Assembly: GCA_963713615.1 (NCBI GenBank)
Contig: CAVQMM010000001.1
Location: 1,763,964 to 1,827,963 of the forward strand
Length of the DNA stretch: 64,000 nucleotides
Source: an uncultured Chlamydiae bacterium
GTDB taxonomy: Bacteria; Chlamydiota; Chlamydiia; Chlamydiales; JAJFMA01
Direction of reading: 5' to 3'
How positions within the stretch are numbered: position 1 is the first letter of the stretch; each line of letters opens with the position of its first letter. Positions 10,319 through 42,524 of the stretch are shown one piece after another. The notes below the pieces were generated by a model, which was not told the DNA's origin, ran no database searches, and saw only the letters and a program-made list of their open reading frames with translations. The position numbers and the translations under genes were made by a program.

Positions 10319-10364
10319 TCGTTTTGGTAGTGCCAAAAGGGCCTATCGCATTAGGTGAGAAAAA

Positions 10365-16655: not shown

Positions 16656-16834
16656 GGGCAAAAGAAGGCCTTGTTCACCTTTACGGTCAGAATTTCGGTC
16701 GGACGAAAAAGGTCGGATGTCGTGGTTTGTGACGAGGGCATAGCGCCAGCTATGTCCGAGGAGCAAAACGCGACAGACGATCCTTTTTCGTCCGACCGAA
16801 AACTGACCGCAAAGGTGAATAAGGCCCAAAAGAA
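16656..16834. repeat. MITE-like palindromic element family B, copy 1
   Basis: A long imperfect hairpin (ggccttgttcacctttacggtcag...ctgaccgcaaaggtgaataaggcc). It is nearly identical to 42344-42524. Confidence 0.85.
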
Positions 16835-17494: not shown

Positions 17495-17672
17495 AAAAAA
17501 AAGGGCCTTGTTCGGCTTTCCGGGCAGAATTTCGGTCAGGCGAGAGGTCCCAGATGCAGCAGTCGACGACGAGGGAATAGCGCTAGCTATTGCCGAGGAG
17601 GCGAATGCTGCAGATGGGCGCCTCGCAGCCGACCGAAAACTGCGCGAAAAGTCGAACAAGGCCAAAAAAAGA
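17495..17672. repeat. MITE-like palindromic element family B, diverged copy
   Basis: Same termini (ggccttgttc...gaacaaggcc) and the same central core (gacgagggaatagcgctagctattgccgaggag) as copies 1 and 3, but with different arm sequences. Confidence 0.75.
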
Positions 17673-18803: not shown

Positions 18804-21665
18804 TTAAAGCAGCTGCCGAAGGACATAGGGCAAAATTCCACCATGCCGATAATATTCGATCTCCGTATGTGTATCTAATCTAGCGAGCAGCTTAACGGAA
18901 CGCTTGCTGCCCCCATTTTGAACCTCAAGGGTAACCTCCTGCTGCGGAGATAGCCCCTTTTCCAATCCTATCAGATTAAAGGTCTCATCCCCCTTAACCC
19001 CTAGACTTTCGTGGGTATCGTCGCCTAAAAATTGCAAAGGAAGAACTCCCATTCCGATGAGGTTACTGCGGTGAATGCGTTCAAAACTCCGCGCAACAAC
19101 AACCTTTACCCCAAGCAACATGGCCCCTTTAGCCGCCCAATCGCGTGAACTCCCCATGCCATAATCGCGGCCTGCGAAAACGATCAGTGGTACCTTCCGT
19201 TCCGCATAGATTTGGCACGCATCATAGATCGGCATGATCACGCCGTCGGGGATTAACTTAGTGAATCCCCCCTCCTTTCCCTCAGCCATCTGATTACGCA
19301 CCCGTACATTAGCAAAGGTACCCCGCATCATCACGTGGTGATTCCCGCGACGGCTGCCATAGCTATTAAAATCTTGCGGCTTCACACCCAGGGACTGTAA
19401 ATACTTTCCTGCTGATGAATCGCTCTTAAATGCCCCGGCAGGAGAGATATGATCGGTCGTCACAGAATCCCCTAACAAAGCGAGACAGTGCATTCTCTGA
19501 AAGGTGGGCAATAATGGCAGTTCAAGAGTGAAATTTTCAAAATATGGGGGCTTTTGGATATAGGTACTGGCAGGATCCCAAGCATATTCTGCTCCAGCAA
19601 CAACGGGAATTTCTTGCCATACAGGATTATCTTTACTGATCTGGCTGTATCGTTTTAGATACATTTCCGGTTGAATAGCCATAGCAATGGCATCGGAGAT
19701 CTCCTGCTGAGAAGGCCATAGATCGCTGAGAAAGACAGGTTTCCCACTGCTATCATGAGCAAGCGGCTCTTTATCCAAATCAATATCAATTCGACCGGCC
19801 AAGGCAAATGCTACGACGAGGGGTGGAGACATCAGAAAATTAGCTCTGACAGCACCATGCACACGAGCTTCAAAGTTGCGGTTGCCACTCAAAACACTAG
19901 CCACAACAAGATCATGCTCTTTGATAGCCTTTTCAATATTTTCCTCTAGAGGACCGCTATTACCAATACATGTCGTGCAGCCATAGGCCACCAACTCAAA
20001 ACCCAAAGCATTCAAAGGGGCCTGCAAGCCAGCCTTATTTAAGTAGTCAGTAACGACTCGGGATCCCGGAGCCAGACTCGTTTTGATCGTAGGATTAACT
20101 TTTAAACCGCGCGCCACGGCCTTCTTGGCCAAAAGCCCCGCTGCTATCATAACGCTCGGATTGCTTGTGTTCGTGCAGCTGGTAATCGCAGCGATGACGA
20201 CAGACCCATGACCCAAAACAACATCACAAATGATGCCATCACCTTCCGCCCCTTCGGTATATCCAGGATCAACAATGGCTGGCGTCAATGGGCGGTTGGC
20301 GACCATCTCCGATTCACTCCATCCAGCATTAGGGCTATCATTTAGGGTGTTTTCACCACCCGTTCTATGCACGTCTGTTAAGGAGAAAGCCCCTGCAGCG
20401 TGAACGCAAATCTTGGGATTGCGATGGGCCTCTGACAAGCCATAGCCACCTTCGGCAACCGGCTTACCCAATAGATCATGAAATTTGTCCTTGAGATTTG
20501 GTAGATCGATACGATCTTGAGGACGTTTAGGACCAGCCACACAAGGCTTTATGGAGGCTAGATCTAGCTCCAACGTCTTGGTAAACAGGAGTTGATTATT
20601 TTGAGGGATACCGAAGAGGCCTTGTGCCTGAAGGTACATCTTGACCTTAGCTACATGCTCCTCGGAACGTCCTGTCGTGCGAAGATAGTCTAAAGTCTTG
20701 TCATCAGCGGGAAAGAATCCCATTGTAGCACCATACTCCGGAGCCATATTACCAATTGTCGCACGGTCTGCTACGGACAAACTGGCGGCACCTTCTCCAA
20801 AAAACTCCACAAATTTACCAACAACCTTTTCTGCACGTAGAAGCTCGGTGATACGCAGTGTGAGGTCTGTGGCTGTCACCCCTGGTCCTAGCTTACCCTT
20901 GAGGTGTACACCAATGACTTCAGGTACCTGCAATGCTACAGGCTGTCCGAGCATAGCGGCCTCTGCTTCAATACCACCAACACCCCAACCGACTACCCCT
21001 AGACCATTAATCATCGTAGTGTGCGAATCCGTACCCACAAGCGTGTCAGGGTATAGAAGAGTGATTTTATCGACCTCATGGCCTGTTACAACGGTAGCAA
21101 TAAGCTCCAGGTTTACCTGATGAACGATACCAATCCCTGGAGGAACAACACTAAAGGATTTGAACGCCCCTTGACCCCATTTAAGAAATGCATAACGCTC
21201 GGCGTTGCGCTGAAACTCTACCTTAAGGTTGAATGCAAAGGCATCTTCCGTACGCGCACGGTCAACTTGAACAGAGTGGTCAACCACAAGATCTACTGGC
21301 ACCTGAGGCTCTATCGATTCCGGGGGCAACCCCTGCTGAGCCACAGCATCACGCATGGCCGCTAGGTCCACAAGTAGAGGTACACCGGTGAAATCCTGCA
21401 GAATGACTCTAGAGACGACAAAAGGCACGTCGCCTTCCCCGGGCTTTTTTGGATCCCACTGGGCGAGGGCGATCACATCCTCTTTTTTGACTCGCTGACC
21501 ATCGCAATGACGCAAAAGGGCCTCCAAGACAATGCGGATCGATACCGGCAGCTGCGATATTTTGGCAATGCCCTGCTCTTCCAATGCTTGCAAGGAGTAG
21601 TAACGAGTGGCTTCCTGCCCATTGAGTGATCTGAGGGCATTGAAAGGATCTGCGAGCTTTCCCAT
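18804..21665 (-). CDS. acnA: Aconitate hydratase A (IRP/AcnA type)
   Basis: 953 aa. Fe-S cluster ligand regions ([34 protein letters not shown]) and the C-terminal swivel domain ([17 protein letters not shown]). Confidence 0.9.
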
Positions 21666-21677
21666 AGAAGTTTTCCG

Positions 21678-22412
21678 TTATGAAAATTTAAAAATGTCGT
21701 CGAAAAAATTAGCCATCGCCTTCCATGAACGTCGGTCAGCCCTCTCATTGTATTGCAAGCCACCACCACCAGCCTCAGGGTTTGTGAAAGCATGAGATGT
21801 ATGACCATAAACGTGAAACTGCCAGTCTATTTTTGCCTGGGTCATTTCGAGTTCAAAGGTAGCAATATCTTCTGTAGAAACTAGAGGATCTTCATGCCCG
21901 TGCAGAACAAGAATAGAACCCTTGGCCTTGGGAGAGATAGGCACTGTCTTGGCTACTTTGTCACCCATTTTACTACCCAGAACGCCGTGGAAACTGACCA
22001 CCCCTCTCGCTCCTATGCCGCTGCGCAACAACTCTATCACAGTAAGACCGCCAAAGCAAAAACCAATAGCTCCAATACGTTTCACGTCCACTAAGGGATG
22101 GCGCGAAAGCGTCTCATACGCTGCAACAATGCGCTGTTGCAGCAGCTGACGATCTAAAAATAGGGGCAGCATGAGTTTAGCAGCCTGTTCATCAGTTGTA
22201 GCAGGCTCTTTGATGCCATAAACATCGGCAGCCAGCACCACATAGCCCAGGCTCGCCAGACATTCCGCCTTGTGACGTGCAAAATCATCTAAACCCATCC
22301 AGGCATGTGCTACGATGACACCTGGACGCTTATCTTCTATACCCTTGCTGTGACACAGGTAACCATTAAGTTCTATGCCTTGCGCTTGATAAGTGATAGG
22401 CTCTCGATGCAT
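21678..22412 (-). CDS. Dienelactone hydrolase family protein
   Basis: Alpha/beta hydrolase with a nucleophile elbow (GFCFGG) and a C-terminal HG..D/H pattern. 244 aa. Confidence 0.8.
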   Translation of the reverse strand: MHREPITYQAQGIELNGYLCHSKGIEDKRPGVIVAHAWMGLDDFARHKAECLASLGYVVLAADVYGIKEPATTDEQAAKLMLPLFLDRQLLQQRIVAAYETLSRHPLVDVKRIGAIGFCFGGLTVIELLRSGIGARGVVSFHGVLGSKMGDKVAKTVPISPKAKGSILVLHGHEDPLVSTEDIATFELEMTQAKIDWQFHVYGHTSHAFTNPEAGGGGLQYNERADRRSWKAMANFFDDIFKFS

Positions 22413-22755: not shown

Positions 22756-23238
22756 ATGAACAAATCGAGCGCCCTGCAGGTATGCGCAACCTGCGGTCTT
22801 GCTTTTTTTTGCGAGCTACAAGCCAGCGAAACGGCTTCAGCCGCGGTGACATTTAGTATTCACCCAATCAACGTCATTGCAGTGAATGCTAATCCTCCTC
22901 CGCTGATAATCCCCGCTATTCCCCCTGGCGATCAAGGGGCTGTCTGCGAGGCATCTACCTCAGCCTTTGCCATAACGACAAACATGTCTTCACAGAGCAT
23001 TACTGCCTGCCTAGACAGCGACATGCCACTAGGACTCACATTACACCTCAAAATGCAGGCTCCACCGGGAGCTACGTCGGAAGGATCCGTGCTGATGGAT
23101 ACGGATGATCGCGTTCTTGTGAGGGGATTATCCAACCTAAATGCGAGTAACTTAACTGTACGCTACTCTCTTCATGCTACTATGGAAGCTTATGGTGTCG
23201 CTGCTACGAGAACTATCATCTATACAATTATACCCTAA
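22756..23238 (+). CDS. Small secreted beta-rich protein, paralog 1 of 6 (most divergent)
   Basis: Signal peptide. N-terminal AAVTFSIHP strand and C-terminal IIYTIIP. Alignable along its length with the five downstream paralogs. Confidence 0.7.
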   Translation: MNKSSALQVCATCGLAFFCELQASETASAAVTFSIHPINVIAVNANPPPLIIPAIPPGDQGAVCEASTSAFAITTNMSSQSITACLDSDMPLGLTLHLKMQAPPGATSEGSVLMDTDDRVLVRGLSNLNASNLTVRYSLHATMEAYGVAATRTIIYTIIP

Positions 23239-23330
23239 AAATCTAGAAAGGATCTTTTTTCTTGTCATCATACGATGCCTCGTAGATAACGAAATTTCTA
23301 GGTAAGTGAACTCTCTTCACCCTGGAGTAT

Positions 23331-23834
23331 ATGATGAATCGTCTATTGCGCCTCCTCTTGGTCCTCTGCGCAAGTTTAGCTGGGGCTACAGCACTATCCG
23401 CCCGTACATCAACGGCACTTGTGACTTTTGCTGTAGGTACCATCAACGCCGTCAACGCCTCCAATGCCATCAGCGTGTCCGGTAATCCAGCAACGCTAAT
23501 AGTCAATTCCGCTGTCGCTGGAGCTCCTCCAGCACCTGCTACAGACAGCACAACCACTTACAATCTCACCTCCAAAGCTGCCAATCAAAGAATCACAGCC
23601 TCCATCAGCACTGCTATGCCTACTGGGGTAAAACTAATAGTCGCCCTAGATGCCCCTAAAGGTGGGACATCCTCCGGGGAAGTCTCTCTTACCACCACCG
23701 CGCAAAATCTGGTAACAGGGATCTCGAACATTGCGCAGTCAAACTTGGGCATCATCTATACCCTTAGAGCCTCCGTAAATGCTGCTGTACAAGGTCCCAC
23801 GACAACCATAGTCACATATACTCTAGGACCTTGA
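23331..23834 (+). CDS. Small secreted Thr/Ala-rich beta-rich protein, paralog 2 of 6
   Basis: Signal peptide (LLLVLCASLAGATA). Conserved blocks ISVSGNPA, TTTYNLTS, QRITASIS.AMP.GV and a C-terminal IVTYTLGP. Confidence 0.8.
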   Translation: MMNRLLRLLLVLCASLAGATALSARTSTALVTFAVGTINAVNASNAISVSGNPATLIVNSAVAGAPPAPATDSTTTYNLTSKAANQRITASISTAMPTGVKLIVALDAPKGGTSSGEVSLTTTAQNLVTGISNIAQSNLGIIYTLRASVNAAVQGPTTTIVTYTLGP

Positions 23835-23949
23835 CCTTCTAGGTCGTGCGACTCTCAATTTTTTGCAAAGCTCCTTTTTGAAAAATAACAATTTGACATG
23901 AAATCGAACGGTGGAACATAAGGACGTTTTTAAAGCGAGGTACTTCATT

Positions 23950-24453
23950 ATGTTTAAATTCATCAGTCAATCACGAACCCCTCTGTTGCTTGCTGTAATA
24001 GGAGCCTGCTTTGCCGTAAATGGGTCTTTGAGTGCTGCCACAACCGCAACGGCTACCGTTACATATACCATAGGAACCATCAACGCGATCAGCATATCGG
24101 GTAACCCTGCTGCAATGACGGTCAATTCCGCAACAGCGGGTAGTGCTCCAACGCCAGCCACAGACACAACAACCACTTACAACATCACTTCCAACGCTAG
24201 CGCTCAAAGAATCACGGCGTCAATTGCTGCGGCTATGCCTGCAGGGGTGACGTTATCAGTTGCCTTAGTTGCGCCTACAGGTGGAACATCGGCTGGGGCT
24301 GTGTCCCTTAGTACCACCGCACAAGCTCTTGTGACAGCGATTTCTAACGTAGCTCAGACTAACTTAGCGATAACCTACAGCATAGCAGCCACGGTGAATG
24401 CCGCCATTGGTGGGCCACTGACCTCAACGGTAACGTATACCCTTGGACCTTGA
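23950..24453 (+). CDS. Small secreted Thr/Ala-rich beta-rich protein, paralog 3 of 6
   Basis: The ATG at 23950 (MFKFISQ...) gives a signal peptide, whereas the track start at 23911 is a GTG extension. Same conserved blocks, ending in TVTYTLGP. Confidence 0.8.
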   Translation: MFKFISQSRTPLLLAVIGACFAVNGSLSAATTATATVTYTIGTINAISISGNPAAMTVNSATAGSAPTPATDTTTTYNITSNASAQRITASIAAAMPAGVTLSVALVAPTGGTSAGAVSLSTTAQALVTAISNVAQTNLAITYSIAATVNAAIGGPLTSTVTYTLGP

Positions 24454-24598
24454 TTCATTCACATAGCATCGATTTGCAGCTGATCTATTCCGAAAACAGC
24501 AGGTATGAACTCTTAGCAGCCAAGAAGTCGTTTAATATTTTCCTTGTCATTAAAATGAAGAGGCCCAATAACGAATTTTTTCAAAGGATGGGTTAGAT

Positions 24599-25099
24599 AT
24601 GTTGAATTTTGTCATTCGGATAAGACTAAAGCTCTTGCCATGCATCATTGGAACGGGCCTCTTGACATCCGCTACCTTGAGTGCGGCAACGACGGCCACA
24701 GCTACCGTGACCTACACGATAGGCACGATCAACGCTATCAGTGTATCAGGTAGCCCAGCGGCCTTGGTTGTCAACACTGCCACAGCAGGTAGTCCTCCAA
24801 CTTCAGCTACCGATACGTCTACCACTTATGCCCTCACGACGAATGCTACAGGCAAAGTCATCACAGCAGGCCTCAGTGCTGCTATGCCTACTGGAGTATC
24901 GTTAACAGTAACGATGGCAGCTCCTACGGGTGGCACATCGGCTGGAGGCGTCGCGCTCACCGCTGTGGCGCAAAACCTCGTCACAGCAATCTCCAATGTG
25001 GCTCAATCAGGCTTGCAAATTACCTATGTGCTCGCTGCTACCGTAGCCGCCGCTGCGGTAGGTCCTTCGACCACTACAGTAACCTATACAATCCTTTGA
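24599..25099 (+). CDS. Small secreted Thr/Ala-rich beta-rich protein, paralog 4 of 6
   Basis: Signal peptide. The N-terminal ATVTYTIGTINAISVSG is identical in type to paralog 3. Ends in TVTYTIL. Confidence 0.8.
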   Translation: MLNFVIRIRLKLLPCIIGTGLLTSATLSAATTATATVTYTIGTINAISVSGSPAALVVNTATAGSPPTSATDTSTTYALTTNATGKVITAGLSAAMPTGVSLTVTMAAPTGGTSAGGVALTAVAQNLVTAISNVAQSGLQITYVLAATVAAAAVGPSTTTVTYTIL

Positions 25100-25128
25100 T
25101 GGTCACTCACCAGACCTAAACCGAGACA

Positions 25129-25590
25129 TCAATGAACAAGGGAGAATGTCGTAGCGAAGGCTTCATGGTCACTCTGGTGGGAAGTCCCATCTACGCTATA
25201 GGTTGTCAATAAATAGCAAGTCGAAGCAGTCGTTAGAATAGTCTGCCAGAAGGTACAGCCGGAAGAATCTTGGACCTCCATTGTAATGACTGCACCAGAG
25301 ATCGACATATCGGAGCTTAAAATCACAAAGGGATTGGGGCTGGAATAGGTAGCCTGCCAATAGGACGCGCTATCAGCCCCTGAAAAAAAGGGTTCAGCAA
25401 GAAGGCTATACACAAATCCCTGTTGCGCTGAGACAAAAGAAATGTACTTTCTAGCCACAACGACAACGGTCAACTGGGGCATTTGTACCTGAAATACATC
25501 TGCAGCAATCGTTCCGGTATATGTCAGCGTATCTGCAACAAGGGTTTGTGTAAGGCTCATGGCCAAAAGCAGTAAACGCAATAGAATCAT
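25129..25590 (-). CDS. Secreted hypothetical protein (paralog of the adjacent 25603-26160 gene)
   Basis: Signal peptide (MILLRLLLLAMSLTQTLVA). Shares FxILSSDxSxxGxVITxxV, FWxT, CxLTTxYS and DHxAFxxxFS blocks with its neighbour. Confidence 0.65.
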   Translation of the reverse strand: MILLRLLLLAMSLTQTLVADTLTYTGTIAADVFQVQMPQLTVVVVARKYISFVSAQQGFVYSLLAEPFFSGADSASYWQATYSSPNPFVILSSDMSISGAVITMEVQDSSGCTFWQTILTTASTCYLLTTYSVDGTSHQSDHEAFATTFSLVH

Positions 25591-25602
25591 TGACGACCCC
25601 AC

Positions 25603-26160
25603 TTATTGGATGCGGCTGAAAGAAGCTACAAAGGCTTGATGATCTGCTTGGGCGGGGTTGGTCGGATCCGAATACCAAGTCGTCAGAATACACACCACCT
25701 GCGATGAGCAAAACACTGTCTTCCAAAAGTACTGAGACGCAGCTGGACAATGCACTTGCAGGGTAATAACCTGGCCTGTCTGAGAAGTGTCGCTGCTCAA
25801 AATCGTAAAGTTATCCGGATCCGAGTAGGAATTAAGCCAAAACGAACTCGTCGCCGCATCCTCCCACCAAGGCCTTACGTCGAACCCCTCATTGAAGGTC
25901 GGCGTTTGCGATAATACATAAACGTAGCTATCCGACAAGGCAAAGAGGTTGGGCGTCGGCATCGTCACTTGGTACTGTTCCCCATTAAACGTTGCTTGAA
26001 GCTCTTCTGACGTCACACCCACCGGGAAAGACAACATGCTGAAGGAAGTCACGGTCATGGTATAGGTTTGCGAATTCATGGTTAAGGTTGGTGAATCGGC
26101 GGCCACACACCGGAACGTGAAGACACCCACCCATACAATCGCAAGTAGGCTTAATCGCAT
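25603..26160 (-). CDS. Secreted hypothetical protein (paralog of 25129-25590)
   Basis: The ATG at 26160 is preceded by a ggagga SD and yields the signal peptide MRLSLLAIVWVGVFTFRCVAA. The track start at 26193 is a GTG extension. Confidence 0.65.
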   Translation of the reverse strand: MRLSLLAIVWVGVFTFRCVAADSPTLTMNSQTYTMTVTSFSMLSFPVGVTSEELQATFNGEQYQVTMPTPNLFALSDSYVYVLSQTPTFNEGFDVRPWWEDAATSSFWLNSYSDPDNFTILSSDTSQTGQVITLQVHCPAASQYFWKTVFCSSQVVCILTTWYSDPTNPAQADHQAFVASFSRIQ

Positions 26161-26261
26161 CCAATCCTCCATAAAGAAATCGAAGGATAACACATTTTTT
26201 TAATTAAAAAAGGACATAAAGAGGTAATTGCGGAAGTCTTGGTGATGTCGAAACAAGTATT

Positions 26262-26500
26262 AAAGCCCTCACGATCGTATCTCGGCGCGAAGCGCTTTGG
26301 AGTGCGTGTCGCTCGCGACCGCTTTGGATTTGGGCGAGCCTATTGAATCGCGCACCGTTCTTTGGAGGCTTAAACCCCCACAGTTACCCCTAGAGCGAAA
26401 GGTTACGTTTCTTGCAATGCCCAGTTCACCCAAATCCAAAGCGGTCGCGAGCGACACGCACTCCAAAGGGCTTCGCGCCGAGACACGATTGTGAGGACTT
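26262..26500. repeat. MITE-like palindromic element family A, copy 2 (most complete; ~70-bp terminal inverted repeats)
   Basis: The left end (ccctcacgatcgtatctcggcgcgaagcgctttggagtgcgtgtcgctcgcgaccgctttggatttgggcg) is mirrored at the right end. The internal core carries a C5 tract. Confidence 0.9.
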
Positions 26501-26606
26501 CATTAGGCATCGGACATTAAAAAAATTCTGCAAATACCTCACTTGGTCTTTCACATTAATAACACTCTTGCCATATGATGCTTTCTCGATCAAAAGGGAC
26601 ACGGGC

Positions 26607-27089
26607 ATGGTCAAGCAATGGATTACAGCAGGGATGATTGGCTTATGCCTGATCTCGGCAGACCTAGAAGCGAGCCTTACGGCTACTCAAACGATTTCCT
26701 ACGTCACTCAGACTATTATTACCCTCTCTGTATCGGGCAGCCCTGCCGCAATGACGGTAGGTTCTGCAACAGCAGGAAGCCAACCTAACAGCGCCACAAA
26801 TTCCTCCACAACCTACAGCGTTACTACTAATGCTAACAGTCAGAGGATCACTGGGTCAATTAGCCCGGCGATGCCCGCCAATGTCACATTAACAGTGAAT
26901 TTAGCGGCTCCTACAGGAGCAACGTCAATGGGCGCTACGACAATGACGACCACTGCCACAAACCTGGTTACTGGCATTACAAAAGTTGCCCAGTCGGCAC
27001 TGACAATTACTTATACAGTATCGGCAACGGTAGCAGCAGTACCTCAAGGCCCCTCAACAACCACGATTATTTATACGATAGGCCCATGA
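26607..27089 (+). CDS. Small secreted Thr/Ala-rich beta-rich protein, paralog 5 of 6
   Basis: The ATG at 26607 (MVKQWITAGMIGLCLISA) gives a signal peptide. The track ORF start at 26412 reads out of the family A repeat. Ends in TIIYTIGP. Confidence 0.8.
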   Translation: MVKQWITAGMIGLCLISADLEASLTATQTISYVTQTIITLSVSGSPAAMTVGSATAGSQPNSATNSSTTYSVTTNANSQRITGSISPAMPANVTLTVNLAAPTGATSMGATTMTTTATNLVTGITKVAQSALTITYTVSATVAAVPQGPSTTTIIYTIGP

Positions 27090-27090
27090 A

Positions 27091-27531
27091 ATGAAAAATC
27101 GTATCGCCTCTATAGCTTTTCTATCGTGCAGTTTGATTTTTGCGAAAGCCTCTGCGGGGACTAATCAGATTTCGGTATCCGGAAGTCCAGGCACAATGAC
27201 CATTACCACTGCAGTACCTGGCTCACAGCCTACAAGTGTCACGAATACCGCAACTACCTGGTCAGTTCAAACCAATGCTGCTACTCACACGGTTACAGCG
27301 GTCCTTAGTAGCGCTCTAGCCACTGGGATCACGCTCAGCTTGAATATGTCTCCTCCACCAGGAGGAGTCTCTCAGGGAACTATCGCCCTCAGCACCACAT
27401 CACAGACCATGGTAACAAACGTTCAAGCTAATAGCACCCAAACTCAAGGACTGACTTATACTCTAGCAGCCAATGTCAGCGCTGGTGTCATCACCCTGGC
27501 ATCAACTGTAGTCACTCTTACCCTCAACTAG
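27091..27531 (+). CDS. Small secreted beta-rich protein, paralog 6 of 6 (lacks the N-terminal strand of the others)
   Basis: After the signal peptide the mature protein starts directly at the ISVSGSPG block. The TVTYTIGTINA-type strand is absent. Ends in VVTLTLN. It starts 1 nt after the paralog 5 stop. Confidence 0.8.
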   Translation: MKNRIASIAFLSCSLIFAKASAGTNQISVSGSPGTMTITTAVPGSQPTSVTNTATTWSVQTNAATHTVTAVLSSALATGITLSLNMSPPPGGVSQGTIALSTTSQTMVTNVQANSTQTQGLTYTLAANVSAGVITLASTVVTLTLN

Positions 27532-27539
27532 TTCTGAAT

Positions 27540-29699
27540 TTACCGCTCGTCTTCCTCCTGTTTTTGGGTAATCTCACCGTGTTCTTCCAAAATGGACAGC
27601 ATGTGTCCCCTCTTCGGAACGACCTTAATCTCTATGAGCTGTTCGTCGCCCGGTTCAAGAGTGAATTCCCATGAATTCTCAGGAAGCTCATGCATCGCAT
27701 CGATATCTTTAGGCTCTACATATAGAGTCCATGTTCCAGGACGCAGTTTGTCAAAGCGAAAGTGGCCACGAGGTGATGTCCGATAGGTGAACGACACACG
27801 ACTTTCTGGATTATAAAGGGTAATGCGAATATCGGAAACACCACCCGCCTCTACATAACAGTCGCTGAGATCTTCTTCAGGCGCACCTGTAAAGAGGTAG
27901 AACTTCTCTGCCGCTTGTAAGGTGTCTGCCAGATCGTACTGGAGGATACGCCCTTGCAAACGACATATCTGTGCCGTTTCAATCATCACACGGTTTTCTT
28001 TACCCTTCCTCACTGTAACGAGGTTCCGTTGTGCCCCTAGAACGGTGTAGTTTTGAGGAAGTAGGTCCGCATACACTTCGTAGCAGCCGGGGTCTACAGC
28101 AGGAAATCGAAAGTTTCCAAGGTGGTCTGTCATCGTACGCTCCCCGGATAAGCTCACCACCGCATGTTCAACAGGCTGCTGAGTGTCCCGATCGATCACC
28201 ACACCACACACATATCCCGTTTGGACTTCCTGAGGGATGATGACATCAAACGGAATATCATAGGAGAGGAACCAACGGAAGTCATCTGGCTCAGCTGCAA
28301 GCTTACAGGCGAAGTATTGTGTGTTGATACGGGCCCTATGACCGTTTTTGCGCGTATGAGAAAGCGTAGCTGATAGATGCGTAAAGAGGCATAATTCGGG
28401 CATATTTGCGGCAATATTACCGTAGCAATTTAGGCAAGTACAAGGGCCCAATTGCCAATTGAAACCGCCACCAACAGCTGTGCGCCATTTACGGACATCA
28501 TAGTACTGGATATTCCCTGTCTCGGCTAATAAGTTCCATTCAAAGGTGGATGACCGTTGCCAACATCCATATAACGAATAGACTTGAAGCGGCCAAGTCG
28601 TTTTGTTCAACACACGATCATCCTGTATTCCCAACGAAGCACTGCTTGTAGCCACAAAACCAGGATAAGAATAGCCTACACGTAGATCTGCCCACTTCTG
28701 TGCTAAGTTATAGCTTTGGAAAGAAGCTCTATTCCTTAGGTACTGTACCCTTCCCGCTAAGGTGCACTGTATCTGCTCTAATGGAATGTAGGTGAGCTGA
28801 GCCGTGTAGAAGCGATTATCGGGTAACACAGAAAAGAAGTCGTCGGGCTCTCCGAGATCTTGCTTATACCAGGTAACACACCCTCCAGCGCGTAGAGAAT
28901 CTGTCAAAGCAGCGTCAACATTGCCGCTGGTCAGATCTACATTGTGATAGTACCCCAAAAAGCCCGGCCCAGCCCTCACTCTTTCGAATGACATGGATCC
29001 CTTGTCACAAGGAAATAGTCCAAACAACCCCACACGATACGCACTTTTGCCTCTTCCATCATTATACGGACCAAAGTCCCTAGCTATCTCCACCTCAGCG
29101 TTAAAGCAGTCTACCGGACCACACAGCATGCGCAAGCTCTGAATGTCAGCCTCTGGATACCCTGCTAGAGGACTCTTATGTAGGTAGTTCCATGAAAAGA
29201 ATGTGCGGCAGTTCGGACGCCACATCAAGTAACCCCCAATTTCCCTTGGCCCATCCCAGTCTTCATCGCGATGGGCCACATACATGCCTCCGGCCTCAAA
29301 CTGGTCGTAGGCTCCAAATCCTTGCAAACCGCGGCCAAAGCGCCAACGCTCGGTCAGAGGACTCAGACCAAAAACCGTATCGCCCCCTTCAACAGCCCAC
29401 ACATCTCCCTCGCCCACAGCGCCACGCACAATCTGTATTTGATTGTAGACGCCGCTGCGATCTTTAGAGGGAAGACGAACCTCATAATCTACCCATCGGC
29501 AAGAGTCCTCATCGATGACACCTCCACCGCACAGTTCTAAACCCACAATAGATTGTCCATGTTCCTGCCCCCCAAAAAGACCGATCCAGCCCGGAACTTT
29601 AAGAGTCGGCGGCTGGGCATAGGGAGACTGTGGCAATACCTCAGTGACTGCCGTATGTTCCCAATAAACCTCACAAGTTTCTTTGTTGATTAGCTTCAC
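27540..29699 (-). CDS. Large Cys-rich envelope protein, distal 719-aa portion: W/Y/G-rich putative beta-barrel region followed by two CarboxypepD_reg-like domains (probably continuous with 29747-30331 through a frameshift)
   Basis: There is no signal peptide at the called GTG start. The frame stays open ~245 nt further upstream without any start codon. C-terminal GVVIDRDTQQPVEHAVVSL...TDHLGNFRF and TSPRGHFRFDKLRPGTW patterns resemble prealbumin-fold domains. Confidence 0.6.
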   Translation of the reverse strand: MKLINKETCEVYWEHTAVTEVLPQSPYAQPPTLKVPGWIGLFGGQEHGQSIVGLELCGGGVIDEDSCRWVDYEVRLPSKDRSGVYNQIQIVRGAVGEGDVWAVEGGDTVFGLSPLTERWRFGRGLQGFGAYDQFEAGGMYVAHRDEDWDGPREIGGYLMWRPNCRTFFSWNYLHKSPLAGYPEADIQSLRMLCGPVDCFNAEVEIARDFGPYNDGRGKSAYRVGLFGLFPCDKGSMSFERVRAGPGFLGYYHNVDLTSGNVDAALTDSLRAGGCVTWYKQDLGEPDDFFSVLPDNRFYTAQLTYIPLEQIQCTLAGRVQYLRNRASFQSYNLAQKWADLRVGYSYPGFVATSSASLGIQDDRVLNKTTWPLQVYSLYGCWQRSSTFEWNLLAETGNIQYYDVRKWRTAVGGGFNWQLGPCTCLNCYGNIAANMPELCLFTHLSATLSHTRKNGHRARINTQYFACKLAAEPDDFRWFLSYDIPFDVIIPQEVQTGYVCGVVIDRDTQQPVEHAVVSLSGERTMTDHLGNFRFPAVDPGCYEVYADLLPQNYTVLGAQRNLVTVRKGKENRVMIETAQICRLQGRILQYDLADTLQAAEKFYLFTGAPEEDLSDCYVEAGGVSDIRITLYNPESRVSFTYRTSPRGHFRFDKLRPGTWTLYVEPKDIDAMHELPENSWEFTLEPGDEQLIEIKVVPKRGHMLSILEEHGEITQKQEEDER

Positions 29700-29746
29700 A
29701 TTGACTAGCTGTTGATAAGCCTCACATCTGTGAGCGTCAGGAGTAA

Positions 29747-30331
29747 CTAGGACGAAAAATCCACCTTCATCGAAACCTTGAGATTCATTCTGTATCTCGA
29801 GAAGGCATTCTGGAGATGTATAGACGATGATGTCGAGAGGTAAGCTAACGTTACCCCTATTGGTAAATGAATGCCTATCTGATAGGGAGCCCCCGCAGGC
29901 ACCAGAGCAGGATAAGGCTGAACCTCCGCCAATACCTCTGAGTACTCAGCCACATGCACCCATAGGGTATCTTCAGAAATAATCTTATCTTCAACGGAAA
30001 GAAAAACTTCTATGGAATAGTTGCCAGGTCTACAGTTCTTTGCAGCCCGAATCGTCACGGCATAAAACTCCTGACAGCCAGGATTGAGAAGGATCTCCTC
30101 CTGACCTAAGGAGACAACCTCCCAACCTGCCGGGGCCTTGAAGCCAACCTGAACGGGCTGACAGCAATCACCTGAATTGCGGATGATGGCACAAGCACAA
30201 AAAGCCTCATTAGGATTGGCCTGTAACCCCTCTTCAGCGCACCATGAAACGCCAAATTCTGTAATATCCGCGCCTAGACTAGCCTGACAGGAAAGAAAAA
30301 GCAAAACCAGCAAAGCAATAAAGCTGCGCAT
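29747..30331 (-). CDS. Secreted Cys-rich protein with a CARDB/NEW3-like domain; probably the N-terminal portion of the large downstream protein
   Basis: Signal peptide (MRSFIALLVLLFLSCQA). Contains the pattern IIRNSGD...V.F.APAGWEV...L.PG...Y.V.I...PGNYSIEV. The last ~40 residues look non-protein-like, which is consistent with reading out of frame. Confidence 0.6.
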   Translation of the reverse strand: MRSFIALLVLLFLSCQASLGADITEFGVSWCAEEGLQANPNEAFCACAIIRNSGDCCQPVQVGFKAPAGWEVVSLGQEEILLNPGCQEFYAVTIRAAKNCRPGNYSIEVFLSVEDKIISEDTLWVHVAEYSEVLAEVQPYPALVPAGAPYQIGIHLPIGVTLAYLSTSSSIHLQNAFSRYRMNLKVSMKVDFSS

Positions 30332-30337
30332 GCAATC

Positions 30338-31120
30338 CTATTTCTGTGGCACCTCAAAGGCAAAGCGCTTGCCAAAATACCGATCACCATCGCGTAGAAG
30401 CAATAACCCTGCATAAGACGCTGGAGCCAACCCTTCGATTTCCACTGGAAAGCGTGTGGAGGTTTCTGGTAGGAGCTTCTGCTCATTGCCATTGATATTC
30501 CTGACTAGTTTACCTTCGACGTCATAGATTTTGAGGCCAAGGTGAGGCTTCAAAAAGACCTCGCCGTTGTTAACAACATCGATATTCAGCGTAGGTTTTT
30601 CTTGATTGGTAGCCCAATCAACTTTCACAAGGTCCAACTTGGCGGTCCCTTGACCAATATTGGTAACGATCTGATAGGCATAGCGCACCTTCACAATGAT
30701 CTGAGTGGCCTCACTCTGCACCTCATGGAAGGTTTCTGGCTCAATGAAAATCAGGCTCCAATAAGATCCCTGATGATCCAATTTCTTCGGTACGCGAACG
30801 ACATAATGAACCTCGGCGCGACTATTCGGAGCAAGCTCTATACGCGTATTTTGTACTTCGATCCAGCTTGCATTAGAGCGTGGAAGCGTGCCGGGTTGGG
30901 GGAAATGGTTCTCACCTGTGGCAGAGTAGGTATAGTCAGCCTGCTTCAGTGTAACTACTAAAGGCTTATCTTCAGCATTGCTGAGGCGAATCTTCATCGG
31001 ATATTCGCCGCCAGGAACAACGTCGATGCATCGAGAAAGATCATCTTCAACTAATCCGCTGCAAGAAAACGGTAGGGCCAGCATAGCGCAAAACAAAAGG
31101 GCAATCCTGAAGCGTGTCAT
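30338..31120 (-). CDS. Secreted two-domain protein, candidate periplasmic chaperone-like / DUF916-DUF3324-like component
   Basis: Signal peptide. There are two ~110-aa beta-type repeats, each ending in a G.Y/SYAG pattern (APNSRAEVHYVVRVP...GSYWSLIF; LPETSTRFPVEIEGLAPASYAGLLLL). A 6-nt gap to the next gene indicates an operon. Confidence 0.6.
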   Translation of the reverse strand: MTRFRIALLFCAMLALPFSCSGLVEDDLSRCIDVVPGGEYPMKIRLSNAEDKPLVVTLKQADYTYSATGENHFPQPGTLPRSNASWIEVQNTRIELAPNSRAEVHYVVRVPKKLDHQGSYWSLIFIEPETFHEVQSEATQIIVKVRYAYQIVTNIGQGTAKLDLVKVDWATNQEKPTLNIDVVNNGEVFLKPHLGLKIYDVEGKLVRNINGNEQKLLPETSTRFPVEIEGLAPASYAGLLLLRDGDRYFGKRFAFEVPQK

Positions 31121-31384
31121 TGCCTTGAACCTCCAATTTTAAATTTACAATACGACGCTCAAAAAAATAGTGAATACGCGATCCTACCACATGCATAGCT
31201 ATCATGAAAAAAGAATTCTTGCCTTCACGATGTTACAGGTCGCTGGGGGTAGGAAGTTGTGCCCCTAAGAACCCCTTTAGATTCAATTTTGTAAGGCTTA
31301 TATTGAAAGATATTTTACAACAAAACGCACATTGACCTTGCAGTGTTGTACAAAACTAAACAAACTAGGCTGGATGGCCGTTCA

Positions 31385-31560
31385 GCGCATAAAGTACGTC
31401 CTTAAAAAGTTATGGCAGATTATGCCTTAGCGAGGCGAGCCAGATTGTTGGGATCGCGACGAGAGCATAGCTTCAGCTATGTTCGAGGAGCGAAACCAAC
31501 AAAATGACCGCAGCAGCAAGGCAGAATCGCCATAACTTTTTAAGGACGTACCGCATAAAT
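31385..31560. repeat. Palindromic element related to family B (same central core, unrelated arms)
   Basis: The arms share a perfect 23-bp inverted segment (gtacgtccttaaaaagttatggc). The core gacgagagcatagcttcagctatgttcgaggagc matches the family B apex. Confidence 0.75.
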
Positions 31561-31707
31561 AACTACCACGTAGGCCTAACGATGCAAAAGATGACGGGGC
31601 AAAAGCTAGTCGGGTGTGCCTCTTCTTTTGCGTTTCTGCGTTAAAAACTTGACAGGGCCAATGCATCGCATTACAACATATGCTCCAAGGCTTGTTAGGC
31701 GGGATTG

Positions 31708-32574
31708 ATGCGTCGCATATTTTTCATTGTTTTTCTTCTAATAGCTATCCTGCTAGTGACCGGATACTACCTGTTTCTAGAACGTAGGGAACCCACTGAT
31801 GTTCTCACGCTTTATGGCAACATTGATGTGCGTCAAGTCGATCTTGGCTTCCGAGTCAGCGGACGCGTCATAGACATGCCTTATCAAGAGGGTGATCTAG
31901 TCCCAAAGGGTGCTTTGGTAGCTGTCCTGGATAACCAACCCTACGCCGATCAGGTGAAACAAGCGCAGGCCAATGTCACCTCCACGGAAATTTCGCTAAA
32001 AAATGCCGATCTCGTTTTACAGCGACGTAAGGAATTGATCGGCGACGGTGGTGTCAGCCAGGAAGACCATGAAAATGCTCAGAGCAGTAGAGATGTGTTG
32101 GCGGCAAACCTGATCGAAAGCCGAGCAGCTCTGGGTGTTGCGCTTACTAATTTAAACGATACGCAATGCTTCGCTCCCTCAGAAGGGGTCATTCTCACAC
32201 GCATTCGTGAACCCGGAACAGTTGTCAAAGCCGCCGATCCTGTATATACGCTGTCACTAACCTCACCAGTATGGGTAAGAGCTTTCGTGACCGAACCGCA
32301 CCTGGGTCAAGTGTACCCAGGAATGCCTGCAGAGGTATACACTGACACCCCCGAAGGTAAGGTCTACACCGGTCAGGTAGGCTTTATCTCGCCCGTCTCC
32401 GAATTCACCCCAAAAAGCGTAGAAACCACTCAGTTGCGCACGGACCTCGTCTATCGGTTGAGGATCATCGCCGACAACCCAGACCATGGTTTACGTCAAG
32501 GCATGCCTGTAACGGTTAAGCTCAAGTTACGCCCTACCTCGGAGCAGGAAAGCTCTGTTAGACATGATGGATGA
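31708..32574 (+). CDS. HlyD-family membrane fusion protein (YbhG-like)
   Basis: N-terminal TM anchor. Lipoyl/barrel-sandwich and coiled-coil pattern. C-terminal GMPVTVKL. Followed by a double-NBD ABC protein and two ABC-2 permeases. Confidence 0.8.
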   Translation: MRRIFFIVFLLIAILLVTGYYLFLERREPTDVLTLYGNIDVRQVDLGFRVSGRVIDMPYQEGDLVPKGALVAVLDNQPYADQVKQAQANVTSTEISLKNADLVLQRRKELIGDGGVSQEDHENAQSSRDVLAANLIESRAALGVALTNLNDTQCFAPSEGVILTRIREPGTVVKAADPVYTLSLTSPVWVRAFVTEPHLGQVYPGMPAEVYTDTPEGKVYTGQVGFISPVSEFTPKSVETTQLRTDLVYRLRIIADNPDHGLRQGMPVTVKLKLRPTSEQESSVRHDG

Positions 32575-34300
32575 ACCGCTTGTTACAATTCGAAATATCT
32601 CCAAAGTCTTCAATGTACAAGGCCCTCCTGCTCTAGAACATATCGATGCAACTATATCCAAAGGAAAAATCGTTGGGCTTGCCGGACCGGACGGCTCGGG
32701 GAAAACAACGCTGATTAGACTAATGGCCGGCTTGCTCCTCCCCACAACCGGTACTATTGAAATAGCCGGATTAGATACCATTAAGGATGCTACCGCCATC
32801 CATCACATTATTGGCTACATGCCGCAAAAGTTTGGTTTGTATGAAGACCTTACCGTGGAACAGAACCTCAATCTCTATGCAGATCTCAAAGGAGTTCTAG
32901 GACACACCAGAGAAGCTACATTCAAGGAACTGCTTTCATTCACCGCGCTAGGCCCCTTCACTCATCGCCTTGCAGGAGCTCTTTCAGGCGGAATGAAGCA
33001 AAAACTAGGATTGGCCTGCGCTCTGCTAAAAAAGCCCACCCTGCTACTTCTTGATGAACCCAGCGTCGGCGTAGACCCATTGTCTCGACGTGAACTGTGG
33101 AAGATGGTCCATGATCTGCTTGGAGAAGGTATTTCTGTCGTCTGGAGTACAGCCTACCTCGACGAAGCCGAGCGTTGTGATAGCGTACTCCTCCTATCTG
33201 AAGGCAAACTCCTCTATCATGGAACGCCCCAAGACCTTACCAAACGCGTGCAAGGCCGAGTCTTCAGTATTACCAATGTGAGTGAAAATCGTCGTCGTGT
33301 TCTTGTCGACGTACTACGATTGAAAAACGTCATCGACGGTGTCATTCAAGGTAGAGATATACATATTGTTACAAAAAAAGATGACTCCTCATCCATAGAC
33401 CTAGAGGCTATCCATGCAGGTCCTGGCGCTAAGCTAGCCCCCGCAACCCCACGCTTTGAAGACGCCTTCATTGATATCCTTGGGGGTGGTCCAGGGGGCG
33501 ATTCCGAACTTGCCAACCGAACACCGCAAATATCCCATTCACAGGGAGTGATGATTGACGCAGAACACCTAACCAAAAAGTTTGGCACTTTTACAGCTGC
33601 GGATAACATCACGATACAGATACGCAGCGGAGAGATTTTTGGTCTTCTAGGTCCAAACGGAGCCGGTAAAACAACAACCTTTAAGATGCTATGTGGGCTT
33701 CTCAAACCTACTTCAGGCCGCGCTTCGGTCCATGACATCGACCTACAGGCAGCCCCTGGTAAAGCTCGCGCCCAAATTGGCTATATGGCACAAAAATTCT
33801 CGTTATATGGAAACCTCAGTGTCCTTCAAAATCTGAATTTTTTCTCCGGCGCCTACAATCTGATTGGAAAAAAACGTGCTGATAGCATCGCTGAGATGAT
33901 AGAGATCTTTGACTTCAAACCTTATTTGGCAGAAAACGCGGAAATTTTACCCCTAGGATTTAAGCAAAGATTGGCTCTAGCGTGTGCTGTGATGCATCGA
34001 CCACAGATCCTGTTCCTGGATGAACCTACATCGGGTGTCGACCCCATCACTAGGCGAGAGTTCTGGAATCATATTAATGGTCTGGTGGAAAAAGGTGTGA
34101 CGGTCATGGTTACCACACATTTTATGGATGAGGCAGAATATTGTGACCGCATTGGTTTGGTCTATCGCGCCAAATTGATTTCCGTTGGAACTCCCGATGC
34201 GCTAAAAGAACAGGCGAGTACGCCAGCAAACCCCTCGCCAACTTTGGAAGATGCCTTTATCCAGGCTATCGAAAAATATGATGCAGCGCACCATGAGTAA
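32564..34300 (+). CDS. ABC transporter ATP-binding protein with two fused NBDs (YbhF-like)
   Basis: Two Walker A motifs (GPDGSGKTT, GPNGAGKTT). Two signature motifs (LSGGMKQK, LPLGFKQR). Two Walker B motifs (LLLLDEPS, ILFLDEPT). Confidence 0.88.
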   Translation: MMDEPLVTIRNISKVFNVQGPPALEHIDATISKGKIVGLAGPDGSGKTTLIRLMAGLLLPTTGTIEIAGLDTIKDATAIHHIIGYMPQKFGLYEDLTVEQNLNLYADLKGVLGHTREATFKELLSFTALGPFTHRLAGALSGGMKQKLGLACALLKKPTLLLLDEPSVGVDPLSRRELWKMVHDLLGEGISVVWSTAYLDEAERCDSVLLLSEGKLLYHGTPQDLTKRVQGRVFSITNVSENRRRVLVDVLRLKNVIDGVIQGRDIHIVTKKDDSSSIDLEAIHAGPGAKLAPATPRFEDAFIDILGGGPGGDSELANRTPQISHSQGVMIDAEHLTKKFGTFTAADNITIQIRSGEIFGLLGPNGAGKTTTFKMLCGLLKPTSGRASVHDIDLQAAPGKARAQIGYMAQKFSLYGNLSVLQNLNFFSGAYNLIGKKRADSIAEMIEIFDFKPYLAENAEILPLGFKQRLALACAVMHRPQILFLDEPTSGVDPITRREFWNHINGLVEKGVTVMVTTHFMDEAEYCDRIGLVYRAKLISVGTPDALKEQASTPANPSPTLEDAFIQAIEKYDAAHHE

Positions 34301-36595: not shown

Positions 36596-37573
36596 TTAGA
36601 AGCGCACAGAGAGGTTAGCTGTGAGGCCATGGAGCATCAGATCGCCAAAGCCTGTGTTGGTAACGTAAAAGTTCTGTATTGAAGAGTTCGATATACGCCA
36701 TGTATGAAAGAAATATTGAACCTCATAGCCTACTCCAATAGATGCCTCATAACAATCACACAAGCAGGTATCCCAGTTTAATCCTAGGAGTAACTGAAAT
36801 TGAGGCATGATTCGTCTCTTGATATTGGTCAGAGTGGTATCTACACTAGGAACGCCTGGCTCCACGATTTGAGTATTTGTTGAGGAAAAGAGACGTCCAT
36901 AGAGAAATGACGTCGAAAAATTACCAAGAAAACTAAGCCCGTTACCCAGTTCATAAGCACTATTAAATCCTATTTTTGGCCCTACACACCACAGGTTGTT
37001 TTTTTCATTTACGGTAGCATTAAAAAAGACTCCCGTATTTGTATCAACAAAGTTGTCGTAAGTGATAAATTGATTTTGATAAATCCTCCCACCCTTTACA
37101 CCAACTAGAGGGCAAATGCTATAGGCAAAATCCTCAAAACCAGGACAGGTAAAATTCAGATCTAACATGTCAAAGTTGCAATTCCACTGACTTGACGCAG
37201 GGCCCCCTACTCCATTTCCACCTATCCCAATGCCTCCCGGGCCTGGCGAAAATATCTCAGTCGCAATAATAAAGGGGTTGGAAACACTCCCTTTAACACT
37301 ATTGTGAACACGAGTCCACGAAAAACTCGTATTCAAATCGCATTTTATTTCTTTAGCCGCTGTTAATCTAAAACCAGAAGTCCAATCTTGGGGTTGAGTG
37401 ACAATTGTCGGATTGTTAAGTGCTGGTACGCTATCTACAGTGGTCGCATACGACATGCTTGATTGTAGGACGTTCCAATAGAGATACTCCACACCAATAG
37501 AAAAATCGCTCGCATTGACTAACGAAGTGATGGCCGACAGAGAGACAACTAGAAAAAATGCAATTTTTTTCAT
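36596..37573 (-). CDS. Cys-rich MOMP-like outer-membrane porin, tandem paralog 1
   Basis: Signal peptide (SLVNA|SD). Alternating beta pattern with a C-terminal ...LSVRF. Multiple Cys residues. 324-aa size class of Legionella/Chlamydiales MOMP-like proteins. Confidence 0.65.
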   Translation of the reverse strand: MKKIAFFLVVSLSAITSLVNASDFSIGVEYLYWNVLQSSMSYATTVDSVPALNNPTIVTQPQDWTSGFRLTAAKEIKCDLNTSFSWTRVHNSVKGSVSNPFIIATEIFSPGPGGIGIGGNGVGGPASSQWNCNFDMLDLNFTCPGFEDFAYSICPLVGVKGGRIYQNQFITYDNFVDTNTGVFFNATVNEKNNLWCVGPKIGFNSAYELGNGLSFLGNFSTSFLYGRLFSSTNTQIVEPGVPSVDTTLTNIKRRIMPQFQLLLGLNWDTCLCDCYEASIGVGYEVQYFFHTWRISNSSIQNFYVTNTGFGDLMLHGLTANLSVRF

Positions 37574-37614: not shown

Positions 37615-38589
37615 CTAGAAACGTACAGAGAAGTTAGCTGTTAGGCCATGAAGCATCAGATCGCCAAAGCCTGTGTTGGTAACGTAAAAGTTCTGTATTG
37701 AAGAGTTCGAGATACGCCATGTATGAAAGAAATATTGAACCTCATAGCCTACTCCAATAGATGCCTCATAACAATCACACAAGCAGGTATCCCAGTTTAA
37801 TCCTAGGAGTAACTGAAATTGAGGCATGATTCGTCTCTTGATATTGGTAAGAGTAGAGTCCACAGTAGGAGAGCCTGGTTCGACCATTAGAGTATGTGCT
37901 GATGTAAAGAGACGTCCATAGAGAAATGACGTCGAAAAATTACCAAGAAAACTAAGCCCGTTACCCAGTTCATAAGCACTATTAAATCCTATTTTTGGCC
38001 CTACACACCACAGGTTGTTTTTTTCATTTACGGTAGCATTAAAAAAGACTCCCGTACCTGTATCCAAAAAGTTACTGTAAGTAATGTATTGATTTTGATA
38101 AATCCTTCCACCCTTTACGCCAACCAAGGGGTAAACACTGTATACGCCATTTTCAAAGCTAGGACAGGTAAAATTCAGATCTAGCATGTCAAAGTTGACA
38201 TTCCATTGACTGGATGCAGGCCCGCCTAATCCATTTCCACCCACTCCAAACCCATTATTTGGTCCTAAAAGCTCAGTCGCAATAATAAAGGGACTGGAAA
38301 CACTCCCTTTAGAACTATTGTGAACACGAGTCCATGAAAAGCTCGTATTAACATCCCCTTCCATCCCCTTAGCTGCTGTTAATCTAAAACCAGAAGTCCA
38401 ATCTTGGGCCTGAGTCACAATTGTCGGATTGGTGAGTGCTGCTATATCATCTACAGTGGTCGCATACGACATGCTTGATTGCAGGACGTTCCAATAGAGA
38501 TACTCAACGCCAAGAGAGACATCGCTCGCGTTGACTAAAGAAGTGATCATGGACAAAGATACAACCAGTAAAAATGAAATTTTTTTCAT
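37615..38589 (-). CDS. Cys-rich MOMP-like outer-membrane porin, tandem paralog 2
   Basis: The ATG at 38589 (MKKISFLLVVSLSMITSLVNA) matches the paralog 1 N-terminus. The 43-codon upstream extension in the track is not supported. The C-terminal half is nearly identical to paralog 1. Confidence 0.65.
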   Translation of the reverse strand: MKKISFLLVVSLSMITSLVNASDVSLGVEYLYWNVLQSSMSYATTVDDIAALTNPTIVTQAQDWTSGFRLTAAKGMEGDVNTSFSWTRVHNSSKGSVSSPFIIATELLGPNNGFGVGGNGLGGPASSQWNVNFDMLDLNFTCPSFENGVYSVYPLVGVKGGRIYQNQYITYSNFLDTGTGVFFNATVNEKNNLWCVGPKIGFNSAYELGNGLSFLGNFSTSFLYGRLFTSAHTLMVEPGSPTVDSTLTNIKRRIMPQFQLLLGLNWDTCLCDCYEASIGVGYEVQYFFHTWRISNSSIQNFYVTNTGFGDLMLHGLTANFSVRF

Positions 38590-38885
38590 TTTGAGACTTT
38601 CCTTAATTTTTCTTTTCGTTGACGATGTAAACGCCCCGGTTGTGGTGGTATAGATCGTCCGAAATACTAATCCACATCTCGACATCGTTGCAAATATTGT
38701 TTTGATAGAGGGTGTCATTCAAACTTGTACTCTCTATTGGCCGGCTAAGCAATCAGGTTCACAGATGGCCTGACCTCGCCAAAGTCTCTTCCATCCAACC
38801 TAACACGGGAAATCAATCCGCATGATGTTGAGGATTAACTTATTGAAGAGATAGTTGACAAATGGAACAAACGAACCCAAATAGC

Positions 38886-42343: not shown

Positions 42344-42524
42344 GCCCGAAAAACCGGCCTTGTTCACCTTTACGGTCAGAATTTCGGTCGGACGAAAAAA
42401 GTCGGATGTCGTGGTTTGTGACGAGGGCATAGCGCCAGCTATGTCCGAGGAGCAAAACGCGACAGACGATCCTTTTGCAGTCGACCGAAAACTGACCGCA
42501 AAGGTGAATAAGGCCGAAAAACCG
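42344..42524. repeat. MITE-like palindromic element family B, copy 3
   Basis: Nearly identical to 16656-16834 across arms and core. Confidence 0.85.

Follow-up and report, generated by a model that had tools for sequence, protein, structure and literature searches.

A single missing base splits an usher-like outer-membrane protein gene in an uncultured chlamydial bacterium

In the 64,000-nucleotide stretch of an uncultured Chlamydiae genome analysed here (the window), two open reading frames on the minus strand, ORF-A and ORF-B, are pieces of one ancestral gene that was split by the loss of a single base at 29862-29866. The loss is probably real, a deletion that inactivated the gene very recently in the chlamydial population sequenced, which would make the gene a nascent pseudogene. 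The joined protein is modelled as an outer-membrane protein with the usher fold, and the genes around it look, by predicted structure, like a fibre assembly system of the chaperone-usher type. The features are listed in Table 1.

Table 1. Features of the disrupted gene and its neighbours in the window (a slash marks the join or, after the N-terminus, the residue that follows it)
Feature	Position	Strand	Description
Whole disrupted gene	27540..30331	-	930-aa usher-like outer-membrane protein if one base is restored
ORF-A	29747..30331	-	194 aa; ATG start; hydrophobic N-terminus MRSFIALLVLLFLSCQASLG/A; signal peptide, Ig-like domain 1 and first strands of Ig-like domain 2 (residues 1-156)
Out-of-frame tail of ORF-A	29863..29750	-	38 aa, then stop codon
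Frame-change site	29862..29866	-	One base missing in CAT TT^A CC; 29864 read twice gives ...GIHL/TNRGN...
Orphaned coding remnant	29700..29864	-	Joined residues 157-211; ORF-B frame, upstream of the GTG
ORF-B	27540..29699	-	719 aa; GTG start; end of Ig-like domain 2, ~26-strand beta-barrel (joined 244-699), two C-terminal CarboxypepD_reg-type beta-sandwiches
Upstream gene	30338..31120	-	Intact; 260-aa secreted protein, two Ig-like domains, chaperone-like/WxLIP-like
Subunit-like protein	27091..27531	+	146 aa, T/S/A-rich, '...TLTLN' type; convergent with the 3' end of the large gene
Subunit-like paralog	26607..27089	+	Secreted, '...TYTIGP' type; likely ATG inside a 225-aa TTG ORF
Four further subunit-like paralogs	22756..25099	+	160, 167, 180 and 166 aa

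The frame of ORF-B (frame B) is that of ORF-A (frame A) shifted by -1. An earlier reading of the same stretch, made from the sequence alone, had proposed one gene of about 930 codons split by such a change, and its sequence statements and coordinates all hold. Frame B is open for 246 nt further upstream of the GTG, to 29945, with a stop codon at 29946-29948, and this open stretch reads ...TNRGNVSLPLDIIVYTSPECLLEIQNES...QQLVNVKL; ORF-B has a GTG start and no signal peptide in its sequence, and the signal peptide attributed to ORF-A is seen in its hydrophobic N-terminus. Base 29864 is common to both readings, belonging to TTA (29866-29864, Leu156) in frame A and to ACC (29864-29862, Thr) in frame B. 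The joined product is 930 aa with L156/T157 at the join (...APYQIGIHL/TNRGNVSL...), and both the shared base and the switch of the profile described below agree with the earlier placement of the join near 29861-29869.

A family HMM was made from 76 homologs with the query left out, and was run on the three forward translations of the region. It aligned with frame A over profile positions 1-157 (window 30331..29870, 73.5 bits) and with frame B over positions 150-906 (window 29894..27579, 610.8 bits). An exhaustive phmmer search with the joined protein against 1.84 billion cluster representatives gave at least 1423 matches at E<=1e-3, with 183 at E<=1e-30. Among the matches listed, nearly all of those with 845-1380 aa (most 880-1060) align mainly in one stretch, query ~4-910; in nearly all full-length matches among the best 150 listed, one main stretch spans the join, and the shorter matches among those listed look like partial proteins. 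Across two alignments, with 12 and 77 members, the N-x-G-N motif shows little or no variation (N158, G160 and N161 are invariant in alignment A1, and N158 and N161 near-invariant in A3). It is encoded just past the join, in the stretch of frame B outside any ORF, and its spacing from a conserved aromatic residue (Y/F) is the same in the joined protein as in the homologs, with no gap.

The closest ortholog, located via its neighbour gene on Logan contig L008, is an uninterrupted ORF of 922 aa with 58% identity to the joined protein over residues 1-916 and 3 gaps. It runs unbroken over the break (...VVLTNRGNVQLPLD..., with VVLTNRGNV at the join), and reads AGAPYRVDVVLTNRGNVQLPLDIAVFTSPEC where the window has AGAPYQIGIHL/TNRGNVSLPLDIIVYTSPEC. 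The orphan segment (residues 157-211) is 52% identical to this ortholog, and the flanking segments are 48% and 61% identical. The last ~40 residues of ORF-A had been suspected of being out of frame, which is borne out here: the 38-aa tail matches the ortholog at 4 of 37 positions, and frame B, translated from that DNA, at 22 of 37. A comparison with orthologs, as proposed in the sequence-only reading, gave eight related loci with one uninterrupted gene of 870-1060 aa (L002, L003, L004, L005, L007, L008, L009, which is partial, and L010), and none of the related loci compared was split at the break position of the query. Together with the query-free HMM, these eight loci, including the 58%-identical one, uphold the proposal of a single gene.

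No SD-like motif precedes the GTG of ORF-B. Such a motif is present in 26 of the 42 genes of the window, with TAGGA preceding the ATG of ORF-A and GGAGG in the upstream 260-aa gene. The GTG of ORF-B is simply the first start-like codon of the open frame, and ORF-B is unlikely to be a stand-alone working product. Public records call both pieces as separate proteins, as would suit a functional split gene, with a 194-aa secreted piece and a 719-aa piece being made separately and cooperating. This arrangement is extremely improbable, however. The break cuts through the middle of a beta-strand in Ig-like domain 2 (strand E150-158, confidently modelled in the AF2 structure of the joined protein with a pLDDT of 93 for the block), the split pieces would lack 55 conserved residues, among them the NxGN motif, and the 38 C-terminal residues of ORF-A are unrelated to the family. 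Since ORF-B has neither a signal peptide nor an SD-like motif, its beta-barrel could not get to the outer membrane.

In the DNA alignment at the join, the window has CAT TTA -CC AAT AGG GGT AAC and the closest ortholog has GTT CTC ACA AAT CGC GGT AAC. The site as written in the window is CATTTACCAAT, and the form of the deletion allele is CATTTACC; CATTTAACC and CATTTTACC are examples of forms with one extra base at the site. A change of TTA-ACC to TTACC would be the simplest path of base loss. The runs at the site are T3, A1 and C2, with no homopolymer of four or more bases, and the G5, G4 and T5 runs in the 199-nt overlap of the two frames (29945-29747) are all distant from the join. No further stop codon or frame change was found elsewhere in the 2.8 kb of the gene. 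A 2-nt insertion instead of a 1-nt deletion was rejected because the joined protein already has the Y/F-to-NxGN spacing of the homologs, and phase variation by slipped-strand mispairing was rejected because the site has no repeat tract.

A regulated shift was among the explanations offered earlier for the break, beside a sequencing error and recent pseudogenisation. A programmed -1 ribosomal frameshift, or low-level slippage at U_UUA_C, would give some full-length usher besides the 194-aa product, in a regulated ratio. The geometry of the overlap permits this, with frame B open from 29945 and frame A stopping at 29747; the tRNA-Leu in the P site could slip from UUA to pair with UUU in the -1 frame, and a small hairpin (-10.6 kcal/mol) lies 4 nt downstream. 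However, the overlap contains no X_XXY_YYZ heptamer and no A/T run long enough for transcriptional slippage. The suggested search for a downstream stimulatory structure gave no significant RNA structure, as the 63 and 123 nt downstream fold no better than shuffles (z = -1.09 and -1.32, with 30 and 20 of 200 dinucleotide shuffles, respectively, folding at least as well). Since all eight orthologous loci use one frame, the shift is not conserved. The overlapping 0/-1 frames and the biologically sensible fusion resemble programmed -1 frameshifting in dnaX and IS3-family transposases, but the slippery heptamer, the stimulatory structure, an internal SD and the conservation of the shift are all absent here. 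Recoding is thus a highly improbable explanation; the frameshift is an ordinary one, and the site offers no hint of a new recoding mechanism.

A sequencing or consensus error is somewhat unlikely, though far from negligible. The gene would then be intact in the organism, the missing base would be a base-calling or polishing artefact, and the two ORFs would be an artefact of annotating an usher-like gene that otherwise works. Outside the site the gene has no flaws and is highly conserved, which is what a still functional gene would show, and the chaperone-like gene and the six subunit-like genes nearby are all intact. The genome is apparently a long single-contig MAG of 3.9 Mb, and related records have Flye-style contig names, which would suit long reads with residual indels; if it is a nanopore MAG, finding one residual indel in ~64 kb would be no surprise. 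Against an error, a k-mer-based assembly built independently from raw reads gives exactly the same sequence: over the 6261 nt of window 26439..32699, the site included, a Logan contig of run ERR11563597 shows 100% identity. One end of this contig falls at an exact repeat at least 31 nt long, as expected for k-mer assembly of accurate reads. The contig may stem from the same reads as the deposited genome, however, and a systematic base-calling error could then be common to both. No other split gene is visible in the 64 kb, where kdpDCBA, aconitase and thrA are full length. The identity of the second assembly and the lack of a long homopolymer at the site favour a real deletion, and the base is most likely missing from the DNA instead of from the base-calls.

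The gene has a single lesion and an orphan segment as conserved as its flanks, from which the lesion appears to be recent; a single lesion without further decay means that the event is either very young or an artefact. The nearest relative, at just 58% identity, is too distant for the event to be dated. No relative above 58% identity was found in the protein clusters, genome collections and metagenomes searched, and with it no intact allele of the same species. A word-indexed protein search with the joined protein returned the fragment itself and one distant relative. A second, alignment-seeded scan of GTDB representative genomes found nothing, and metagenome scans with a protein pattern, and with an exact DNA pattern in which the site could hold 0-2 extra bases, revealed no intact or broken allele.

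Pseudogenes formed by single-base indels are frequent among host-associated bacteria and in assemblies of draft or MAG quality. The window gene is like them in that homology resumes in another frame, orthologs are unbroken, the downstream piece has no translation or export signals of its own, and a nonsense tail leads to a premature stop; it differs in having a single lesion with no further decay. As a separate observation, an usher-like homolog at 7780-10505 of a locus in another related genome (L011; ENA ERZ25039476 contig_54958) is spread over at least three frames in pieces of 75, 275, 202 and 292 aa, with one frame change at an A5 run and flanking genes that look intact. Either this gene has decayed there independently, or the breaks are indel errors of long reads.

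The sequence-only reading had called the product an envelope protein, which can now be sharpened. An AF2 model of the joined protein, based on a 77-sequence alignment (mean pLDDT 89.4, pTM 0.69), consists of a signal peptide, two Ig-like domains (26-127 and 133-233), a barrel (244-699), and two beta-sandwiches (706-801 and 826-906); DSSP assigns about 26 strands between residues 244 and 699. In a Foldseek search of the PDB, FimD and PapC came out on top (E 9e-15 to 1e-11) over ~800 columns, with TM-scores of just 0.26-0.39, low values as expected for multi-domain proteins in different conformations. By these models, the joined protein is an usher-fold outer-membrane protein. Its sequence profile gave weak hints of outer-membrane barrels when compared with the PDB. 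The C-terminal domains match CarboxypepD_reg, SdrD_B, SpaA and fn3_3 in Pfam, and no match to Usher, PapC_N or PapC_C was found at E<=1. The earlier label 'CARDB/NEW3-like' is weakly backed by Pfam, where NEW3 falls below threshold on the first domain (E=0.2), although AlphaFold does show two N-terminal beta-sandwiches of the Ig type.

PF00577 ushers have a 24-stranded barrel with an internal plug domain. The window protein shares with FimD and PapC the presence of periplasmic N-terminal domain(s), a large outer-membrane beta-barrel and two C-terminal beta-sandwiches, and the setting is also alike, the gene adjoining that of a two-Ig-domain periplasmic protein and several genes of small secreted subunit-like proteins. 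It differs from them in that its N-terminus is formed by two NEW3/CARDB-like Ig domains instead of the usher NTD, its C-terminal domains are of the CarboxypepD_reg type, its barrel region has ~26 strands in the model, and the usher Pfam models do not match it.

The 260-aa protein belongs to a family whose gene lies directly upstream of the large gene in all related loci. Its AF2 model (pLDDT 94.6) is closest in Foldseek to the WxLIP of Enterococcus faecium (9i1y/9i25; E 1e-13, TM 0.52-0.57), followed by the chaperones CfaA, CsuC, Caf1M, EcpB and FimC, which serve chaperone-usher pili, the matches to CfaA, CsuC, Caf1M and FimC having E-values of 1e-10 to 1e-6. In sequence, the protein does not match Pfam PapD_N or PapD_C, and it falls below threshold with the WxLIP models PF06030/PF11797 (E 0.034). 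Several members of the family carry precomputed PF06030 or PF11797 matches, and one is named a DUF916 protein by NCBI. A profile of the family run against the PDB by sequence found no WxLIP chain and spurious matches at most. WxLIP (DUF916/DUF3324) is part of Gram-positive WxL/Csc cell-surface clusters (PMC10599100; PDB 9i1y, 9i25). The 260-aa model is like WxLIP, but the window cluster differs from WxL/Csc clusters: its small partner proteins have no double Trp-x-Leu motif and no Pfam match, and its host is a diderm with an outer-membrane barrel protein in the cluster, which is absent from the Gram-positive ones.

Six small secreted T/S/A-rich paralogs are encoded near the large gene, and the same family is found beside the large gene in other loci. 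Two conserved types can be recognized by their ends, ...TYTLGP or ...TLTLN, and a protein of the latter type occupies the same position in L002 and L003 (alignment A7). The mature N-termini (ATTATATVTYTI...) have an alternating beta-strand pattern. The small paralogs have no Pfam match and no PDB match by sequence in a profile search, and the double Trp-x-Leu motif is absent from the subunit-like proteins aligned. Between the subunit-like genes, at 25129-26193 on the minus strand, lie the genes of two adjacent paralogous secreted proteins of 157 and 196 aa, also with no Pfam match.

Several repeats were seen in the window. A MITE-like intergenic element of ~250 nt, with ~80-nt inverted arms that are 87-96% alike, is present in three copies (4705-4946, 26258-26517 and 56241-56525). 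The second copy is located just upstream of a subunit-like gene and gives the 225-aa TTG ORF a spurious N-terminal extension; it is also where the Logan contig ends. Other short intergenic repeats, dispersed or palindromic, occur at 10001-10273 and 61986-62052, 1162-1366, and 51369-51873; these include a 67-nt unit in three copies, also inverted, an 81-nt perfect-ish hairpin with 98% complementarity, and a 76-nt arm pair 353 nt apart. A 172-nt direct repeat in three copies (16660-16831, 17497-17668 and 42349-42520; 95% and 71% identity to the reference copy) overlaps in part short ORFs of ~100 aa. The tandem paralogous genes at 36596-37573 and 37615-38718 (325 and 367 aa) have stretches in common with 86-93% nucleotide identity, indicating that they were duplicated in tandem not long ago.

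A pair of genes for 953-aa and 244-aa proteins at 18804-22412 was considered as an intact paralog of the cluster and rejected, since they encode aconitase and a dienelactone-hydrolase-like protein. The nearest named proteins to the aconitase are from Rhabdochlamydiaceae (71%) and Protochlamydia (69%). With the chlamydial relatives of the large gene, this places the source among the environmental Chlamydiota. The chlamydial genome, apparently on a single 3.9-Mb contig, contains kdpDCBA, thrA and multiple efflux systems. A genome of this size with such genes would be large and metabolically rich for Chlamydiota.

The gene cluster at 22756-31120 consists of three parts, namely a chaperone/WxLIP-fold protein of 250-270 aa, an usher-fold outer-membrane protein of 870-1340 aa, and one to six small T/S/A-rich secreted proteins, and it is also found in L002, L003, L004, L005, L007, L008, L012 and L013. 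On L012, a JGI contig, and in L013, an NCBI genome, the order is likewise chaperone-like gene then usher-like gene; in the latter, the pair adjoins a gene with a T9SS sorting tail and three small genes. A third scan of the genome collection gave four chlamydial loci with the large gene, members of whose family are present in Waddliaceae and other chlamydial MAGs. The three-part cluster is conserved in Chlamydiota and other phyla, and no account of this diderm cluster came up in searches of the literature.

In its predicted structures the cluster is like a chaperone-usher pilus machine, yet it escapes all usher, PapD chaperone and pilin sequence models, none of these signatures being found in its three parts. 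Since it has no Usher, PapC or PapD Pfam match and thus fails the sequence definitions, it is filed as working like a chaperone-usher system, not as a member. Tentatively, and with somewhat less than even confidence, the broken gene may be read as the export pore of an undescribed chaperone-usher-like fibre-assembly system that has diverged beyond sequence recognition. The parts of this putative system would be a chaperone of WxLIP-like fold, an usher-fold outer-membrane protein with NEW3-like N-terminal and CarboxypepD_reg-like C-terminal domains, and T/S/A-rich subunits. Under the same reading, its conservation would extend from Chlamydiota to the FCB group and further diderm phyla, and it may have an evolutionary link with the WxL/WxLIP surface clusters of Gram-positive bacteria.

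In the sequenced population, translation initiated at the ATG would give a 194-aa secreted stump, in which Ig-like domain 1 is followed by a broken domain 2 and then by 38 nonsense residues. The barrel and the C-terminal domains would be untranslated, or made from the weak GTG with no signal peptide and so kept from the outer membrane; either outcome predicts that the pilus-like cluster is switched off at the export step. If the export-pore reading is true, the frameshift is a natural knock-out of the system in one chlamydial lineage, and if the deletion is real, it provides a ready-made loss-of-function comparison. In the databases, the deposited 194- and 719-aa proteins should be merged and flagged as one frameshifted gene. 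The context of the cluster is worth more than the frameshift itself, given that the large protein has relatives in at least 1423 cluster representatives, and surface fibres in Chlamydiota would bear on host attachment.
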